Shown one piece after another: positions 10,529 through 18,365 of a DNA stretch of 19,198 nucleotides (its first letter is position 1; the number at the start of each line of letters is the position of its first letter). The notes under the pieces are model-generated. The model had not been told where the DNA came from, did not search any database, and saw nothing but the letters and a program-made list of their open reading frames with translations. The position numbers and the translations under genes are program-made. Origin of the DNA: a virus (lineage: Duplodnaviria; Heunggongvirae; Uroviricota; Caudoviricetes); the IMG/VR virus record IMGVR_UViG_2585427781_000003. One strand, written 5' to 3'.

Positions 10529-11830
10529 TTAAATCCGAAGTGATGTGACTCTTCCGGTCGGTTTGACAATAGGGAATTGCTTAACGATGAAATAACCTCC
10601 GGCATCATTCGGGTGATCATTGCCAGATTTTTTATCAGGCTCCCCCTTCTCATCCCAGACCTGTTGCTCCAGAGATTCGGCATATAACGGGCAACGCTTC
10701 ACATTAACTTTATAGCGACGCTCACCATTGGCATTGCAGAACATTGCATTCATTGAGTTAACGCGATCTTTTACTGGCGGGGTCGAGCTGTTCACCACAA
10801 CGTTAAAACCAGCCTGCTTAAGCTGGGCTATATCCGTCGTACTTGCGTTACTTGATTTTCTGGAATCCCCGGAAGCATCTGGATAAATATAAATTTCCCT
10901 CACTTTCCGGTAATCATTCCCATCATACAGCCAGAAGCGTTCTTTAATGATGCGGATCATATCCGGCGTATCGTAGGCATTGATGATTTCAGTTACCGCA
11001 CATGGAAGCCCCAAACGCAGCACATGGACGATTCCCGCCATCTTTCCAACGTTAAAATCCATCCCAATATAAATCGGCTCCCCTGGCTGCTCCACTTCTT
11101 CGCAATTATTCAGTTTCCGGTCAAACTGATGGTAAACAGTACCACTTGTCAGGTTAGTAAACTGTCCTCGAAGATAGGCTTTAATCAGCTCTGGAGGGTA
11201 TGATTCAAGAAGCGAAGGAATGTAATCTGCTGGCAGGTTCTTTTCATTATCGAAAGTAGATGCCTGCACCAGACCATACAGTGAGGCCAGCTCTGTTTTT
11301 TCACGCACGGCTTTAACAAACTGCTCGTAGACAAATTTGAATCCTTCCGGCGTGGTTGTAACGTCAATACCGTTGCGAAGTCCATCAATCTTATAACGCA
11401 TACGTGCAATTATCTTGCGCCACGCCGTTCTGGCTTTTTCCTTCGGCAAAATGTCCAGTTCATCCACCAACGCATTACCAATTTTGAAATCGACGATCGT
11501 TTGTGGCTTCTCCATCGATCTGCAGATAGTGGTTCCCCGATACTGGCGTCCGTAATAAAAGTGAACCTCTTTATTTCCCTCATTAATTTTTACGTTCAAT
11601 CCCCAGTCAGCAGCAACTTCTTCCACTGTAGGGTAAAAAATATCGCGAATTTGGGGATACGTTGGCGCAAAATATCCCTGATTTATACCTGGATGCTCCC
11701 AAATCCCCTTGCATATGCCGCCACACCCAACCCATGTTTTGCCCGAGCCAAAACCAGCAATATAGGCTTTAAATTTATGGGGCATTGAAAGAAATCGCGC
11801 CTGAGGCACATTAAGCGTCGGAGAGATCAT
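10529..11830 (-). CDS. Terminase large subunit
   Basis: Walker A-like AGFGSGKT near the N-terminus and a nuclease-type C-terminal half. Start chosen at ATG 11830 (AAGGAG 8 nt upstream); the track ORF begins at GTG 11839. Confidence 0.88.
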   Translation of the reverse strand: MISPTLNVPQARFLSMPHKFKAYIAGFGSGKTWVGCGGICKGIWEHPGINQGYFAPTYPQIRDIFYPTVEEVAADWGLNVKINEGNKEVHFYYGRQYRGTTICRSMEKPQTIVDFKIGNALVDELDILPKEKARTAWRKIIARMRYKIDGLRNGIDVTTTPEGFKFVYEQFVKAVREKTELASLYGLVQASTFDNEKNLPADYIPSLLESYPPELIKAYLRGQFTNLTSGTVYHQFDRKLNNCEEVEQPGEPIYIGMDFNVGKMAGIVHVLRLGLPCAVTEIINAYDTPDMIRIIKERFWLYDGNDYRKVREIYIYPDASGDSRKSSNASTTDIAQLKQAGFNVVVNSSTPPVKDRVNSMNAMFCNANGERRYKVNVKRCPLYAESLEQQVWDEKGEPDKKSGNDHPNDAGGYFIVKQFPIVKPTGRVTSLRI

Positions 11831-12905
11831 CTTCATCACTCCTTACTCTGGCATCAACCACATTAATATTGATCGCCACAGGCTGGGGATGTTCATTATC
11901 TTCCACCGTTTCGATCTCTTTGCGCAGCTTCTGGTTTTCCATTCTGCGCCGTTCAATTTCCAGTTCCTGTAGCCGTTTATCTGCACATAAAGCCCCGCCA
12001 GCAGAAAACAAACGCAACAATTCACGCCGGGCGGCAGCCTTATCCTCCAGCAGGATCTCAACGCCGAATTTTCCGAATTTTGCCCCTGCATATAATTGCC
12101 GCGCATCCCCATCAAGCAGAGTGGTATCAGCCATATAAAGCTGTCCCGTTCCCTCACCGCAGCACTTCGGGCAGTCCGGATTGGGTATGGCGTTATCAAC
12201 AAAGCCGAGGCCTCCATATTCCGGTTCGGGTTTGCCATCTCTGGAAGCCTGCGCCGCTGCCTTGTCGAATTCTGCTATATCGCGCCACTGGTAGAGATGA
12301 TTCTCGCCCCAGCAATAACGGCAGTTAACACGGCGAAATTGTGCAAGCTGATTGGGGTCGGCCAGGACAATAGCCATCAACTGACTCACTAGTAAATCCA
12401 GGTCTGCGGTATAGCGTTTCTGGTACTGATTGCGGAAGTAGCTGATAGCGCGAAAAACCCTGGCATTTCTAAGCATACGACTGGCGTTGCTGTTAGCTGT
12501 CGCACCTTGCCCCTCATAACCGGCTAGTCGGTACGCCTCTGTCGGCTTTTTACCCTGAGCAACAAGCATCGCAAACTTAGCCTGCTGGTCAGAAATGCCG
12601 AATTCATCGGGACAGAACGAAAATTCCTCCGCGTCGCCCTCATTCAGGCCCGCATCGAATACTGGCTTTTTTTCCTGAGATTTTTCGTTCCGCTTTTGTG
12701 CAGTCTGCGCAGATTTTTTCTGCGCACTTTTTTGCGCAGTTTTGCACATTTCTGTCTGCGCATTTTTCGGAGTTTTTTTGATGTAACGACGGGCTGTTGC
12801 GTAATTCAGTCCCCTTGCTTCACACCATGCCACCGGAGATATACCGGAGCGGGTGTATTCAGCAATATACTCCTGCTGCAACGCCCCCCAGTCCGGTCTG
12901 CTCAT
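11811..12905 (-). CDS. Terminase small subunit (unusually long, 364 aa)
   Basis: N-terminal HTH-like segment, an AMLVAQGKKPTEAYRLAGY motif typical of small terminase subunits, and a 20-nt overlap with the terminase large subunit start. Confidence 0.8.
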   Translation of the reverse strand: MSRPDWGALQQEYIAEYTRSGISPVAWCEARGLNYATARRYIKKTPKNAQTEMCKTAQKSAQKKSAQTAQKRNEKSQEKKPVFDAGLNEGDAEEFSFCPDEFGISDQQAKFAMLVAQGKKPTEAYRLAGYEGQGATANSNASRMLRNARVFRAISYFRNQYQKRYTADLDLLVSQLMAIVLADPNQLAQFRRVNCRYCWGENHLYQWRDIAEFDKAAAQASRDGKPEPEYGGLGFVDNAIPNPDCPKCCGEGTGQLYMADTTLLDGDARQLYAGAKFGKFGVEILLEDKAAARRELLRLFSAGGALCADKRLQELEIERRRMENQKLRKEIETVEDNEHPQPVAININVVDARVRSDEDDLSDA

Positions 12906-12908
12906 CAG

Positions 12909-13160
12909 TTAGTCCTGATTTTTATCCACCCTGAGTAGTTCGCGCAGAGCAAAGGCATCCCCTTTTCTGGCAAGCTTAAACAATGCCGCTCGTAACTCGG
13001 CTTCACCTTTCGCTCTGCCCTTACGGATGGCCGCATAAAAATCTGTCATTGCTTCCCGATTTTCTTTCAGTCGGTTCAGATCAACATCCAGAACGTCAGC
13101 GATTTGTTGTGCAGTCATCCGGCACGCTGCCAGAGACTCGACTTTCGAATACGGAATCAT
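12909..13160 (-). CDS. Small HTH-type DNA-binding protein (function unknown)
   Basis: 83-aa ORF; ATG at 13160 preceded by GGGGGTGA; HTH-like segment MTAQQIADVLDVD; sits immediately upstream of the terminase small subunit. Confidence 0.6.
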   Translation of the reverse strand: MIPYSKVESLAACRMTAQQIADVLDVDLNRLKENREAMTDFYAAIRKGRAKGEAELRAALFKLARKGDAFALRELLRVDKNQD

Positions 13161-14028
13161 TTGTCACCCCCATTGATATGCAGGGTGTCTTCTTCCTGTA
13201 TTTTTCGTGAAGGATTTTTACTGCAGCGTTGTTCCAGGTGACCTGATGGTGAATGCGTTTATGGCTGGCACCCATCAGTGAGATTTTTACGCACGACGGC
13301 GCATACATGACGGAGTAAAAACTTTTAACGTAGGTTCCGGAATCCAGATACAGCTCGGTCATTCCGCCGCTGTTTTTCTGCGTCTGTTTCTGCCCTAACT
13401 GGACAGCACCGATCGTCATAAACAATTCACCACAGCGACCGAGATTCGTGTACGTATTCACATCCTCGTTAATGCGCCCCATGAATGAGAACGGTCGATC
13501 AACCGAACAGATAAAGCTGTTCATTGCCTTGCGTTTCACCCACGAAGCATGGCCGCCATTGTCACCAAGAAAATCCCCGCCCTGCGACATAGCGATGGAA
13601 AGAGCAGGTATTGATTCGTAGTACGCCAGCATTTCAGAAAGGATCGCATCCAGTTTCCTTATCGGAAAATAGGCCTGGTCATAGTTGCGATCCACCCGAA
13701 ACTGGAACTCGTGATAATCATCATCGAGCTGAATGAAGTATTTACACCCGACCAGTTTTGCCAGGTCGAAACAGGCATTACGGGCGTAAAAAATTGAGCG
13801 GCGGTCACAGAAATTATCGGCTTCGTCAAAACGACTGGCGATATCGGCTTTGGAAAACACCAGCACCTGTTCACCAAATTCAGCCATGTACTGATTTCGT
13901 GTCTTATCTTCATCATCAACAACGATAAAAATTTTCCCGGTATAGCCAGCACGACGCAACGTCCGGTAAGTCAGAACTTTGTCCGGTCGCCCGTGAGTCA
14001 GAATAAAGGCGCAAAAATCATCACGCAT
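13096..14028 (-). CDS. GT-A-fold-like nucleotide-sugar transferase candidate (hypothetical)
   Basis: ATG at 14028 preceded by GAGGAGGAGGAAT and overlapping the ParB-like stop (ATGCGTGA). Pattern FILTHGRP...IFIVVDDED...YFIQLDDDY is beta-alpha-beta followed by a DxD-type acidic motif. No transmembrane segments. Function is inferred from these motifs only. Confidence 0.55.
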   Translation of the reverse strand: MRDDFCAFILTHGRPDKVLTYRTLRRAGYTGKIFIVVDDEDKTRNQYMAEFGEQVLVFSKADIASRFDEADNFCDRRSIFYARNACFDLAKLVGCKYFIQLDDDYHEFQFRVDRNYDQAYFPIRKLDAILSEMLAYYESIPALSIAMSQGGDFLGDNGGHASWVKRKAMNSFICSVDRPFSFMGRINEDVNTYTNLGRCGELFMTIGAVQLGQKQTQKNSGGMTELYLDSGTYVKSFYSVMYAPSCVKISLMGASHKRIHHQVTWNNAAVKILHEKYRKKTPCISMGVTNDSVFESRVSGSVPDDCTTNR

Positions 14029-14812
14029 ATTCCTCCTCCTCACCACCATGCATGATCTCCACCATGCGCTGCGTCATCCGGACAAATCCATTTTCAATAG
14101 CCTGCTGATAATCAATGATCACCAGCGCCGACTCCTCGAAAAAACACTGAATTTCAGAGGGGGCGTGAGCGTAATAGTCCGCAATTCTGCTGAAATTAAA
14201 CACCGTGTGACGTTCTGCCGCACACAGGAGGAATTTCTCAATATCAGGCTCAAGGGACGCCGAACGTATCCGGCTGATCAGCTCCTGAGTTTTCGTATCG
14301 TCGTACAGTTCACTGATATCCGGTTTACCGCCCGACGGCTCATAAACAGGCGTATCAATTTTCGTCGTATACGGCTCCTCCTCATTTCCTGTACCGGGCA
14401 AAACATCCGTCAACAGTTCATCAATTTCTGTCGGGATGAAGCCTGTCAGGGAGACATCAAAATCAGCATTGATTAGGTCCGACAGCTCCATCCGCAACAG
14501 ATCTTCATCCCAGCCAGCATTCATCGGCAGGCGATTATCTGCCAGGCGGTACGCCTTTTTCTGCTCATCCGTCAGGCCAGACAGAACAATGACCGGAACA
14601 GAATCCATTTTGAGCATTTCAGCCGCCATAACACGACCGTGACCCGCAATAATTTCGCCCTTTTCGTCAATCAGCACCGGATTAGTCCAGCCGAATTGCT
14701 TAATACTTTCTACCAGTTGTGCCACCTGCTCAGGGCTGTGCGTCCTGGCGTTGTGCGCATACGGTGACAATTCTTGTAATGGGCGATAGACTATCTTTAA
14801 TTTCTCGCTCAT
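14021..14812 (-). CDS. ParB-like nuclease domain protein
   Basis: 263 aa; the N-terminal ~100 aa (YRPLQELSPYAHNARTHSPEQVAQLVESIKQFGWTNPVLIDEKGEIIAGHGR) matches the ParB/sulfiredoxin-type N-domain pattern; acidic C-terminus. ATG at 14812 with an AAGG RBS. Confidence 0.78.
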   Translation of the reverse strand: MSEKLKIVYRPLQELSPYAHNARTHSPEQVAQLVESIKQFGWTNPVLIDEKGEIIAGHGRVMAAEMLKMDSVPVIVLSGLTDEQKKAYRLADNRLPMNAGWDEDLLRMELSDLINADFDVSLTGFIPTEIDELLTDVLPGTGNEEEPYTTKIDTPVYEPSGGKPDISELYDDTKTQELISRIRSASLEPDIEKFLLCAAERHTVFNFSRIADYYAHAPSEIQCFFEESALVIIDYQQAIENGFVRMTQRMVEIMHGGEEEEYA

Positions 14813-14825
14813 ACAGCCTTGCTTT

Positions 14826-14863
14826 ATGAATAAAACGCACCCCAGCAGCCAGTGCTACTGGGG
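14826..14863 (-). terminator. Possible terminator downstream of trkG
   Basis: Minus strand CCCCAG (12-nt loop) CTGGGG then TGCGTTTTATTCAT, between the trkG stop (14950) and the ParB-like start. The large loop and spacer make it weak. Confidence 0.35.
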
Positions 14864-14949: not shown

Positions 14950-16407
14950 TTAGGAGCGCCAAAAAAAACCTGAAAACAATATAATAACAGGATAAATTTC
15001 AAGGCGACCAAGAATCATAGCTATGCACATTAAACATTTTGCAATGTCATTAAGCACTCCGAATGACGATGCAGTAGCCCCAAAACCTAATCCCATATTA
15101 TTAATACATGCAGCCACTGTTGCAAATGATGTAAGAAAATCATATCCCATACCATTTAACACCAGTATAAAAAACACCGTGAAGAGAGTATAAAGAAAAA
15201 AGAAACTCCATACAGACCTCATTACACGATCTGTAACTATCTTCCCTCCTACATTTACACTCAACAACGCTCTGGGATGAGAAAGCTGATTTATCTCGTG
15301 TTTGCTTTGTTTGAAAAGTATAAGAAATCGAAGTGACTTAATTCCACCACAAGTTGAACCTATACATCCCCCAAAGAAACTTGACAACAGCAAAAACACT
15401 ATCGTGTGCGTGGGCCAACTTGCATAATCCTGCGTAGCTAAACCATTATCAGTGAGCATGGAGCTGGCAAGAAAAAACGAATGAATAAAACTTCCATGCA
15501 AGTCATACATACCTATATGCCAGACCTGGAAAGAGGTAACAATGATCACCCCTAAGGCTATTAACAGAAAGAAACGAAGTTCAATATCTCTGATTAAAGG
15601 TTTTATCGTTTTCCTGCTAATAACAATATACCAAAGAGTGAAGTTGAAAGCCGATAGCAGGGAAAAAGAACCAGCCACCAGCTCAACCAAATAGTTATTA
15701 AAATATCCGATACTCTCGCTATGAGTTGAGAAACCACCAAGCGAAACTGTGGAAATCCCGTGACAAATAGCATCAAACAAAGGCATTCCTGCAAGTCTAT
15801 AACAGACAATACAAGCAATACCTAATAAAGAATAAGTTATCCACAGTGTCCGTGACGTATCGGCCAGGCGGGGAGTGAGTTTGTCATCCTTAAATGGCCC
15901 CGGCATTTCTGACTGATAAAGCTTTGCACCACCAATACCCAATAATGGCAATACAGCAACCGCCAGAACAATAACTCCTAAACCACCTATAAAATTTAAC
16001 TGTGACCGATAGTACAAATATGCCCGAGGTAATGAACTAACATCATCAATTACAGTTGCTCCTGTTGTTGTTATTCCAGAAACCCCTTCAAACAGAGCAT
16101 CAATGAACGTTAAATTAAGTTCTGAGTCAATCCATAAAGGGAATGCACTAATAACAGAAAACAAAATCCAAAACATTACAATTATAATAAACCCATCACG
16201 GGTACGTAATTGAATGCCAGATTTCTTAGTTGTATACCACGCTCCGCCACCAATGCAAAAAAATATAACGAAAGTTATAAAGAAAACGAACAGGCTTTTT
16301 TCTTTATAAAACAATGCTACAACCATTGGTGGCAACATTGAAAGACTATAGAGCCAAACCAGGAACCCACACATATGAGTAACAACTCTTACATGAGATG
16401 TATTCAT
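14950..16407 (-). CDS. trkG: TrkH/TrkG-family potassium uptake membrane protein
   Basis: 485 aa from ATG 16407 (MNTSHVRVVTHMCGFLVWLYSL...); polytopic membrane protein with repeated GxG-type selectivity-filter-like loops. The sequence matches what I recall of TrkG from the E. coli K-12 Rac prophage. Visibly AT-rich relative to its neighbours. Confidence 0.93.
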   Translation of the reverse strand: MNTSHVRVVTHMCGFLVWLYSLSMLPPMVVALFYKEKSLFVFFITFVIFFCIGGGAWYTTKKSGIQLRTRDGFIIIVMFWILFSVISAFPLWIDSELNLTFIDALFEGVSGITTTGATVIDDVSSLPRAYLYYRSQLNFIGGLGVIVLAVAVLPLLGIGGAKLYQSEMPGPFKDDKLTPRLADTSRTLWITYSLLGIACIVCYRLAGMPLFDAICHGISTVSLGGFSTHSESIGYFNNYLVELVAGSFSLLSAFNFTLWYIVISRKTIKPLIRDIELRFFLLIALGVIIVTSFQVWHIGMYDLHGSFIHSFFLASSMLTDNGLATQDYASWPTHTIVFLLLSSFFGGCIGSTCGGIKSLRFLILFKQSKHEINQLSHPRALLSVNVGGKIVTDRVMRSVWSFFFLYTLFTVFFILVLNGMGYDFLTSFATVAACINNMGLGFGATASSFGVLNDIAKCLMCIAMILGRLEIYPVIILFSGFFWRS

Positions 16408-16544
16408 ATCTAAATATTCTTTCAATTATAACCACCTTGCTGCAATATTATGATTATACTGTATAAAATTTAACTCCTCTTAGATCTTACTTCACTGTTC
16501 CTTATGAAACAATCATCAAAATGAATCATATTGTAGTTAAGATT

Positions 16545-17009
16545 TTACTTTAAACACTGCTCGGTTATGTATTGCTGAGCACCTTCAAGTTGGGCCTGCA
16601 TCATTACCAGTCGTTCCCGGAGGGTGAAATAATCCCGTTCAGCGGTGTCTGCCAGTCGGGGGGAGGCTGCATTATCCACGCCGGAGGCGGTGGTGGCTTC
16701 ACGCACTGACTGACAGACTGCTTTGATGTGCAACCGACGACGACCAGCGGCAACATCATCACGCAGAACATCATTTTCAGCTTTCGCATCAGCTAACTCC
16801 TTCGTGTATTTTGCATCGAGCGCAGCAACATCACGCTGACGCATCTGCATGTCAGTAATTGCCGCGTTCGCCAGCTTCAGTTCTCTGGCATTTTTGTCGC
16901 GCTGTTCTTTGTAGGCGATGGCGTTATCACGGTAATGATTAACACCCCATGACAGGCAGACGACGATGCAGATAACCAGAGCGGAGATAATCGCGGTTAC
17001 TCTGTTCAT
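16545..17009 (-). CDS. Rz i-spanin
   Basis: ATG at 17009 overlaps the endolysin stop (ATGA). N-terminal TM segment ([16 protein letters not shown]) followed by a coiled-coil periplasmic domain. Confidence 0.9.
16604..16789 (-). CDS. Rz1 o-spanin lipoprotein, embedded in Rz in the +1 frame
   Basis: 61 aa, [20 protein letters not shown] lipobox, proline-rich ([16 protein letters not shown]), lying entirely inside Rz. Confidence 0.9.
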
Positions 17010-17503
17010 TGCTGACCCCACAAACAGATTTCACGCTCAATCTCACGACGAGTCATGAGACCTTTCCATTGCTTACCGCCAGCATATGTCCAGCGACGTA
17101 GCTGATCACATGCGCCTTTGATATCGCCCTGGTTTATTTTGCGAAGAAGCGTCGATGTTCTGAAATTGCCAGCACCCACGTTGTAAACGAATGAGTAAAG
17201 AGCGCCGCGCGTTGTTTCCGGTATATCGACTTTGATGTACGGGTTAATTTGTCTGGCGACCGTGGCAAGGTCTTTATTCAGGAGGGCTTTGCATTCTGCT
17301 TTGGTATACGTTTTACCGAGCATGATGTCTTTTCCTGTATGCCCGTGACATACAGTCCATACACCAACAATATCTTTGTATGGTATGTAGCTGACACCTT
17401 CCAGACCATCGTTACCACTTGGGCCAGTGATTAACACTGATGCTATAGCAATTGCTCCGCCACCAATAGCAGCAGCAACGACTTTTCGTAATGATGGAGG
17501 CAT
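17006..17503 (-). CDS. SAR endolysin (T4 lysozyme-type, phage 21 R-like)
   Basis: 165 aa with a Gly/Ala-rich N-terminal signal-arrest-release segment ([20 protein letters not shown]) and catalytic E...D...T spacing ([16 protein letters not shown]). RBS GAGGTGA; start overlaps the holin stop (TAATG). Confidence 0.93.
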
Positions 17504-17969: not shown

Positions 17970-18365
17970 CTAACCTCGCATGTCAAAGCCAGATTTCTGA
18001 AAATCTCTGTAGACTTCCGGATTGTTGAAGGCCGGAAATTTGGCTTTATGAGCTGCGGACTTTATCGCTTCGCAATAGGCTTTATCACCGTTACTGGTAG
18101 ATATTTTTAACGCCGTGCCATCCTGAGAGAATTCCATATGCAACCTGCATTTTTTCCCTTTCCAGTTATGCGGCTCATCAAGTTTGGCATTAATTGCAGC
18201 TCTGATTCCCCGCGCTTGCGCCCCCCATTCATCCTGATCATCCCAGCGTCCTGAACTGCAACTACCTGTAGCAGTAGTTTTGTGGCAATCTGAAGGGTGT
18301 AAAGGTGTGCATCCCGCAACAAAACCGACCCAAAAAGTCAACATAACGATTTTCTTTAATCCCAC
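17970..18365 (-). CDS. Lipoprotein with a TolA C-terminal-domain-like fold (paralog 1)
   Basis: GTG start at 18365 with a GAGGAG RBS; signal peptide and lipobox MGLKKIVMLTFWVGFVAGC; C-terminal region KKCRLHMEFSQDGTALKI...YCEAIKSAAHKAKFPAFNNPEVYRDFQ has the same Cys/Gly/Pro spacing as the TolA C-terminal domain. Confidence 0.8.
   Translation of the reverse strand: MGLKKIVMLTFWVGFVAGCTPLHPSDCHKTTATGSCSSGRWDDQDEWGAQARGIRAAINAKLDEPHNWKGKKCRLHMEFSQDGTALKISTSNGDKAYCEAIKSAAHKAKFPAFNNPEVYRDFQKSGFDMRG

Follow-up and report, generated by a model that had tools for sequence, protein, structure and literature searches.

A TAGT-family glycosyltransferase and its constant partner module in a Rac-type prophage of Escherichia coli: a candidate two-subunit DNA glycosyltransferase

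The subject of this study is a pair of overlapping genes in a 19,198-nucleotide stretch of viral DNA (Caudoviricetes; IMG/VR record IMGVR_UViG_2585427781_000003), hereafter termed the window, which represents the late region of a Rac-type prophage of Escherichia coli. The first gene encodes a ParB-like protein and the second a glycosyltransferase (GT) of the TAGT family. The comparison of their relatives documents that the constant partner of TAGT is an unannotated C-terminal module of about 110 amino acids (C-module) and not the ParB/Srx N-domain, which is an accessory. We propose, with about even confidence, that the pair represents a late-expressed phage DNA glycosyltransferase of two subunits, in which the partner is obligate.

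All genes of interest are located on the minus strand, as seen from the list of open reading frames (ORFs) and from the sequence itself, in the order lysis genes (holin, lysozyme, Rz/Rz1), trkG, a hairpin, the ParB-like gene, the GT gene, a gene for 83 amino acids and the genes of the small (TerS) and large (TerL) terminase subunits. An earlier note on this DNA, made from the letters alone, had described the two ORFs, the overlap of their start and stop codons and a strong ribosome-binding site; these are all present at the positions it gave, and we add the strand, which it had omitted. Among 5426 complete E. coli genomes, 1580 show a match to the 1904-bp region of the pair and the 83-aa gene (12909–14812) and 867 retain at least 80% of this region; the pair is carried by about 16–29% of complete E. 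coli genomes.

The glycosyltransferase belongs to the TAGT family

The GT gene (13096–14028, minus strand) encodes a protein of 310 amino acids with an isoelectric point (pI) of 8.0. The earlier note had read this protein as GT-A-like from the stretches AFILTHGRP, IFIVVDDED and FIQLDDDY, which occur in it exactly as quoted, and had considered it not assignable to a named family. The first statement is borne out by structure and profile searches, but the second is superseded, because the protein matches the Pfam profile PF20691 (TAGT, TET-Associated Glycosyltransferase) over residues 8–222 (E=7.6e-35; 121.1 bits versus a cut-off of 27.5), and the assignment is already found in RefSeq, where the current name is “GREB1-related protein”. 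A further match was obtained with phrog_842 (E=1e-103), and the clade of the protein comprises 1498 representative clusters at 50% identity. Neither PADLOC nor NCBIfam returned a match for TAGT or for the product of the 83-aa gene.

In the AlphaFold2 (AF2) model the N-terminal half adopts a confident Rossmann-like fold, with predicted local distance difference test (pLDDT) scores above 90 for residues 1–150. The top Foldseek matches in the PDB are all GT-A enzymes and related nucleotide-sugar enzymes, but these fold matches are generic (E about 1e-3 to 1e-4, template modelling [TM] score 0.3–0.45); the best matches in BFVD are phage proteins with a TAGT domain (TM 0.71–0.78). An alignment of 35 homologs with 59–82% identity revealed the invariant residues G13-R14, D38/D41, D102-D103-D104-Y105, E188-D189 and R258/H260/H261. 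The DxD motif for metal and nucleotide-sugar binding (D102-D103-D104; 13717–13725, minus strand; codons GAT GAT GAT) is thus invariant, and the whole set fits the R...DDD...ED signature that has been described for DNA-glycosylating phage GT-A enzymes and for the base-J glucosyltransferase (JGT; bioRxiv 10.1101/2023.12.21.572611). The protein is accordingly a TAGT-family member by profile, GT-A fold, DxD motif and acidic catalytic residues. Its last 21 or so amino acids represent a poorly conserved, E. coli-specific extension without counterpart in other genera, which generates a 65-nt overlap with the 83-aa gene (13096–13160, minus strand).

Coupling of the two genes

The start codon of the GT gene (14028–14026) overlaps the stop codon of the ParB-like gene (14023–14021) as ATGCGTGA, and the genes share 8 nt. 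The Shine-Dalgarno sequence GAGGAGGAGG of the GT gene (14032–14041, minus strand; read from the sequence) lies inside the coding sequence of its neighbor, ends 3 nt before the GT start codon and is encoded by the Glu codons of a Glu-rich tail (EEEE). An alternative in-frame ATG at 14049 would result in a protein of 317 amino acids, but the 310-aa start is favored because 35 homologs begin at MRDDFC; RefSeq agrees in giving a length of 310 amino acids. This translational coupling fits the formation of a complex in fixed proportion, and since the overlapping pair recurs across phyla, the arrangement is far beyond chance. Acidic tails are also conserved in the homologs of the ParB-like protein; part of this conservation may stem from a Shine-Dalgarno sequence of the GAGGAGGAGG type and not from protein function.

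The C-module is the constant partner of TAGT

The ParB-like partner (14021–14812, minus strand; full-length YnaK) is a protein of 263 amino acids with a pI of 4.49 and a net charge of about -25. It consists of three parts, namely, a nucleoside triphosphate (NTP)-binding N-domain, a disordered acidic linker and a helical C-domain. The C-module combines a Y-T-x-K-I-x-x-P-x-Y motif in the linker with the helical domain and is unannotated. The motif (Y148-T-T-K151-I-D-T-P155-V-Y157-E-P159; 14336–14371, minus strand) is located in a stretch predicted to be disordered (pLDDT below 50 for residues 136–169). Across phyla, Y148, P155 and Y157 are invariant and K151 is nearly so, also in partners that consist of the C-module only (stand-alone partners). 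The conserved C-domain (aa 170–263; 14024–14305, minus strand) harbors the invariant residues F194, L195, R201, H202, I210, A211, Y214, Q222, E226, S228, L230, I232, D234, A238 and G242. No significant Pfam identity was found for the C-module (best E=0.003–0.04, below thresholds). An armadillo-like nature was considered and rejected: the only sequence matches in the PDB are designed armadillo repeats (E=0.002–0.004), which we regard as compositional because no single stretch is significant.

The association of the two proteins was investigated in both directions, with loci chosen by TAGT in a forward test and loci chosen by the C-module alone in a reverse test. In the forward test the partner is located upstream of and overlapping with TAGT in all 86 loci (six Pfam-annotated neighborhoods and 80 from IMG/VR). 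The six neighborhoods, with 64–74% identity, exhibit the order ParB_N, TAGT and TerS/TerL despite unrelated families of terminase, portal and capsid proteins, and the same arrangement of the pair is found in 80/80 of the IMG/VR loci. It is also conserved in 55 GTDB species genomes (42–100% identity) wherever the locus is not truncated. Their carriers include Proteobacteria, Bacteroidota, Clostridia, Veillonella, a Virgibacillus plasmid, Acidobacteriota, Actinomycetota and bacteria of the candidate phyla radiation (CPR), and among the cultured carriers are the archaeal virus HHTV-2, the Lactobacillus phages phi jlb1 and c5, Vibrio phages of about 191 kb and the Nocardia phage NTR1. In the reverse test of 80 IMG/VR loci, TAGT is adjacent or overlapping in 75 and within about 1–2.4 kb in four, while one locus is cut by the contig end; TAGT is hence found adjacent to or within about 2.4 kb of the C-module in all 79 informative loci. 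The co-occurrence in related prophages that the earlier note had proposed as a check was therefore seen in every informative locus, together with the overlap of start and stop codons.

The reverse test also separates the two halves of the ParB-like protein. In the loci selected by the C-module, 64 of 80 partners are stand-alone proteins of about 130–150 amino acids that lack the ParB N-domain. The search with the C-module profile retrieved 4943 clusters; each of the best 120 is a stand-alone “hypothetical protein” that lacks a Pfam domain. The C-module and TAGT hence represent the invariant system, to which the ParB N-domain is an accessory. The pI contrast between an acidic partner (4.5 here) and a basic TAGT (8.0 here, with a median of 8.9 over diverse homologs) holds across phyla. 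Among 150 representatives neither the ParB N-domain nor the C-module is fused to TAGT; the fusions seen join TAGT to S-adenosylmethionine (SAM)-dependent methyltransferases, a sulfotransferase or a second TAGT copy.

The ParB/Srx N-domain

The N-domain (aa 1–135; 14408–14812, minus strand) had been called ParB/Srx-like from the letters alone, and this call is confirmed by Pfam ParB_N (PF02195; 28.9 bits, marginally above the cut-off of 26.3) and by Foldseek matches to CDP/CTP-bound ParB, Noc and KorB (E about 1e-6). The ParB-like ORF also matches phrog_620 (E=8.5e-91). The sequence matches of the protein in the PDB are Spo0J/ParB, and the invariant residues of the N-domain comprise N21, H25, the G57-x-G59-R60 motif with the Box II arginine (G57-H-G59-R60 here) and D92-N93. 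The N-domain thus has the ParB-CTPase fold and belongs to the ParB/Srx group. It also matches the N-terminus of profiles for ParB-methyltransferase fusions (PADLOC MTase_II, E=2e-38; phrog_498, E=1e-50). In Pfam, the protein shows neither a methyltransferase domain nor a helix-turn-helix (HTH) family match. The score for TIGR00180 (38.5 bits) is below the cut-off of 58.45, a ParA-binding motif of the LG[KR]G[LFI] type is absent from the sequence, and no ParA gene is present in the whole prophage.

RefSeq/PGAP flags ynaK as “incomplete; missing C-terminus” in one E. coli record (L001, 21647–21904), although the matched DNA is 100% identical to the window, where the ORF is intact at 263 amino acids. 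The flag presumably results from the truncated K-12 YnaK as naming reference, and the “incomplete” annotation hides the conserved C-terminal module.

Genomic context

The two partner types occupy different genomic settings. Partners fused to the ParB N-domain are located directly before TerS/TerL. One example is phage c5, in which the pair represents ORF1 and ORF2 immediately after cos. Stand-alone partners reside in replication modules, where 25 loci have a family-A DNA polymerase upstream and 26 have the beta clamp of DNA polymerase III downstream, or among genes for primase, exonuclease, helicase or Prim-Pol. Links to sugar tailoring recur: besides the TAGT fusions named above, a UDP-galactopyranose mutase adjoins the pair, and extra GTs are found in the neighborhood.

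A viral contig (L231, 8065–11895) carries, directly upstream of the terminase, a C-module-TAGT pair followed by three more glycosyltransferases (GT-B-like, GT2 and GT_PLOD) and a methyltransferase; this array looks like a candidate multi-sugar glycan cluster. Two TAGT copies, as tandem genes or as a fusion, are present in some loci and representatives (L113, 2970–3845; L134, 3581 onward; P0261; P0273). One of the L113 copies is far more divergent than the other (E=3e-43 versus 3e-118), and such a divergent second copy suggests sequential sugar additions.

In the window, the pair is preceded by an intrinsic terminator-like hairpin (14840–14863, minus strand) with a 10-bp stem, seven GC pairs and a T-rich tail. 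It lies downstream of trkG and 27 nt upstream of the ParB-like start codon, and no convincing sigma-70 promoter was found between the hairpin and position 14812. This strong hairpin probably keeps trkG transcription from reaching the pair in the lysogen.

Comparison with known systems

Neither the TAGT family nor a general link to ParB is new (Iyer et al. 2013, through citing papers; Pfam; RefSeq), and surveys of 5mYOX/TET clusters note ParB and terminase genes as frequent neighbors. With the phage GT-A enzymes of these clusters and with JGT, the TAGT studied here shares the Pfam family, the fold, the R/DDD/ED pattern and, sometimes, the presence of further GTs and sugar-tailoring enzymes; as in those phages, it is phage-encoded. 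It differs in that TET/JBP, a hydroxymethylase of the thymidylate-synthase type and a cytosine methylase are lacking, as in most relatives examined, and in its obligate partner module of about 110 amino acids.

One class of phage thymine dioxygenases (5mYOX176/ParB176) depends on a ParB-like protein for its activation on double-stranded DNA (O’Toole et al., PNAS 2026, PMC13229309). Here, too, a ParB-like protein without DNA-binding domain is encoded next to an enzyme of a DNA-modification family. The layout of ParB176 is alike, in that an NTP-binding domain and short helices are followed by an unstructured linker and a C-terminal domain, and the Box II residues are conserved. The partner enzyme of the present protein is, however, a glycosyltransferase and not a dioxygenase, and most relatives (64 of 80) do without a ParB N-domain. 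The protein hence resembles the 5mYOX-activating ParBs but is not a member of this group.

The same holds for the fusions of a ParB-CTPase fold with N6_N4 DNA methyltransferases, which are enriched in prophages (Kaljevic et al., PNAS 2025, PMC12704722). The present N-domain matches their N-terminal 140 or so residues, and the two systems have in common the enrichment in prophages and the combination of a ParB N-domain with a DNA-modification-type enzyme. In contrast to the fusions, the catalytic partner is encoded as a polypeptide of its own and belongs to another enzyme class, and the ParB-like protein has an extra C-terminal module; it resembles the fusions without being one of them. An analogy to M.EcoGII as a ParB-fused prophage methylase was dropped, since the respective paper shows no extra domain.

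Partition ParBs (Spo0J, KorB, Noc) share the N-domain fold and the residues of the nucleotide pocket. The protein studied here, by contrast, has no HTH domain for parS binding, no ParA-binding motif and no cognate ParA gene, is strongly acidic and is encoded in a late phage operon. It is a ParB/Srx-fold protein but not a partition ParB.

Functional interpretation

The earlier note had considered that the pair could be a DNA modification module, and the affiliation with the TAGT family and the obligate pairing argue for this reading, which we keep as a proposal. It is further favored by the settings among replisome or packaging genes, the opposite charges of the two proteins, the kinship of the ParB N-domain to methyltransferase fusions, the sugar-tailoring fusions and neighbors, and the terminator with no convincing promoter behind it. 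The TAGT family includes phage GT-A enzymes that have been shown to glycosylate 5-hydroxymethylcytosine (5hmC) in DNA as well as the trypanosome base-J glucosyltransferase (bioRxiv 10.1101/2023.12.21.572611). In our model, the basic TAGT would be the catalytic subunit with DNA as the putative sugar acceptor, and the acidic partner would activate or target it. In the packaging-linked versions, the ParB-type domain that is fused to the C-module would act as an NTP switch, by analogy with the ParB-activated 5mYOX and the ParB-methylase fusions. Because the terminator upstream of the pair is followed by no convincing promoter, expression would occur only on read-through or antitermination of the late operon. 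Progeny DNA may then be modified just before or during packaging, and this modification would probably serve to evade host nucleases.

Several observations weigh against this model. Phage DNA glycosylation is taken to need a pre-installed hydroxyl handle (5hmC, 5-hydroxymethyluracil [5hmU] or 5-hydroxycytosine), and to our knowledge all experimentally characterised DNA glycosyltransferases need a hydroxyl-bearing base. No supplier of such a base was found around the pair: the prophage, covered in full from intR through to its tail genes, has no TET/JBP, no hydroxymethylase and no DNA methylase, the two complete phage genomes (phi jlb1 and c5) have no annotated enzyme that makes a hydroxylated base, and no TET_JBP or thymidylate-synthase family member is present in nine Pfam-annotated neighborhoods. 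The recurrent neighbors (SSB, VRR-NUC, SNF2-methylase, PcfJ/K and C5 methylase) include no such enzyme either. The usual association of TAGT with TET/JBP (5mYOX) or another source of 5-hydroxymethylpyrimidine is thus lacking, although this association is contextual and does not define the family by sequence. About 65% of the GT contigs of Pyle et al. (2023/2024) have no 5mYOX/ThyS partner, a subset that these authors leave uninterpreted and rate as “less likely” to represent DNA hypermodification. In addition, the highly acidic partner has no recognisable DNA-binding domain, and the AF2 models are of low confidence in the C-terminal half of the GT and in the C-domain of the partner. No DNA modification of carrier phages was found in the HHTV-2 literature, and GREB1, a member of the TAGT family, has been reported to transfer O-GlcNAc to protein (PMC7968844).

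One way around the missing hydroxyl would be that sugars are placed directly on canonical, unhydroxylated DNA, for example on an exocyclic amine or another native nucleophile. We regard this as a doubtful variant, and we know of no DNA for which such a direct glycosylation of unhydroxylated bases has been described.

The acceptor problem would disappear if the substrate were a protein, since no hydroxylated base is then required. The most specific version of this explanation is that TAGT glycosylates the Tyr or Thr residues in the Y-T-x-K-I-x-x-P-x-Y motif of its own partner, in the manner of glycogenin or of peptide GTs, and that the resulting acidic glycoprotein works together with the machinery of replication or packaging, or is injected and acts as an anti-defense factor. 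Y148 and Y157 are invariant with Thr/Ser nearby, and the predicted disorder of this segment and its retention in the stand-alone partners across phyla are in line with an acceptor site. The top fold neighbors in the PDB include GT-A enzymes that act on proteins or peptides (SunS/ThuS, glycogenin and ColGalT1), the activity reported for GREB1 points in the same direction, and a strict one-to-one pairing suits an enzyme and its substrate as well as a complex. A conserved linker motif is, however, more often a docking peptide, the fold matches to GT-A enzymes are generic, and DNA is the substrate of the closest relatives whose function has been tested. The operon setting with replisome or terminase genes and the kinship of the ParB N-domain to DNA-methylase fusions likewise indicate DNA, and we consider protein glycosylation unlikely.

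A conventional role on hydroxymethylated bases is still somewhat less probable. In this scenario TAGT would act on 5hmC or 5hmU supplied by an unrecognised or divergent hydroxylase, or on the hydroxymethylated DNA of superinfecting phages, thereby mediating exclusion or interference by the prophage. It would agree with the TAGT family membership, and in five Bacteroidota loci a C5 cytosine methylase is located about 7.5 kb upstream of the pair. According to O’Toole et al. (PMC13229309), the TET_JBP Pfam model misses thousands of 5mYOX-like sequences, and Pyle et al. raise the possibility that prophage GTs modify invading genomes. Yet no candidate of fitting size and type is present in the Rac-type prophage or in the two complete small phage genomes, and no recurrent unknown neighbor accompanies the pair. 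An exclusion role would need expression in the lysogen, against which the terminator and the late-operon position argue; moreover, glucosylation would protect T-even DNA, as it does in T4, and not harm it.

That the two genes are unrelated neighbors or decayed cargo, with a ParB-like partition protein or packaging nuclease next to an independent or remnant GT moron, is highly improbable: Rac-type prophages are often degraded, as is evident from the 867 of 1580 matching E. coli genomes that retain at least 80% of the region, and ynaK is marked as partial in some RefSeq records, but this explanation is contradicted by the co-occurrence data, with pairing in every informative locus in both test directions and in bacterial phyla as well as an archaeal virus, by the two ORFs, which are intact here with all invariant residues, and by the absence of ParA, an HTH domain and a ParA-binding motif, while the “partial” flag sits on DNA 100% identical to the window, in which the ORF reads through to 263 amino acids.

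Neighboring genes

The 83-aa gene (12909–13160, minus strand) ends 3 nt before the TerS start codon (12905). Its product matches positions 145–218 of the profile phrog_309, “terminase small subunit” (E=8e-23). RefSeq calls a 69-aa version, which resolves the overlap with the GT gene; the 83-aa start is preceded by the Shine-Dalgarno sequence GGGGGTG, and homologs in Pantoea and Serratia match end to end. The position upstream of TerS given in the earlier note is correct, but its HTH label is backed by no profile (there is no Pfam match, and phrog_309 is the only match at all), and the gene is not part of the cassette with the pair. Among the loci of diverse species, it is found next to TerS/TerL only in the enterobacterial genera Pantoea and Serratia; elsewhere there is one weak match (31% identity) in a metagenome-assembled genome (MAG) of Cellulosilyticum. 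Since it co-varies with the enterobacterial type of TerS/TerL, the 83-aa gene is part of the packaging module and not of the pair.

TerS (11811–12905, minus strand; 364 amino acids), which the note had placed downstream of these genes, and TerL (10529–11839, minus strand) are both identified by profile matches. Their genes overlap by 29 nt (11811–11839, minus strand), and an N-terminal segment of TerS weakly resembles HTH proteins of the IS66 TnpA type (NCBIfam, E=4e-4, below the cut-off).

On the other side of the pair, trkG (14950–16425, minus strand) encodes a K+ transporter of the TrkH family (Pfam TrkH, E=5e-145). It represents a moron that separates the lysis cassette from the packaging module, with a GC content of 0.34–0.40 versus 0.45–0.52 in the flanking genes. 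The same slot is occupied in a Yersinia enterocolitica prophage (L007, 2180–3332) by genes for A and B subunits resembling heat-labile enterotoxin (Pfam Enterotoxin_a/Scabin-like, and LT-IIB) directly upstream of the ParB-TAGT pair. The slot is thus a moron hotspot.

The lysis genes include a pair of the Rz/Rz1 type, in which a 61-aa ORF (16604–16789, minus strand) is nested out of frame in a 158-aa Rz-like gene (16545–17021, minus strand); the 61-aa product is proline-rich with a lipoprotein-like signal (...VVGC...). A small protein encoded upstream of the lysis genes (17970–18365, minus strand; L001, 25062–25436) is annotated in RefSeq with a TolA C-terminal domain.

Significance

In the literature searched, we found no prior description of the unannotated module as an obligate partner, of a ParB N-domain that can be dispensed with, of the split between replisome and terminase contexts, or of the steady lack of a hydroxylase. 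Glycosylation of phage DNA is a major escape route from restriction, CRISPR and other nucleases, and the locus, which lies in an E. coli prophage amenable to genetics, provides a clean and very common case of GT contigs without a hydroxylase pathway. The partner module, represented by thousands of “hypothetical proteins”, gains a context, and the pair adds to the emerging picture in which ParB-fold proteins serve nucleic-acid-modifying enzymes as accessory subunits. If the partner or another protein is glycosylated, a large “DNA-modification” family needs re-annotation. If the pair modifies DNA, it would establish a new acceptor chemistry, and direct glycosylation of unhydroxylated DNA, if true, would be common among phages, both temperate and lytic, that infect bacteria and archaea.

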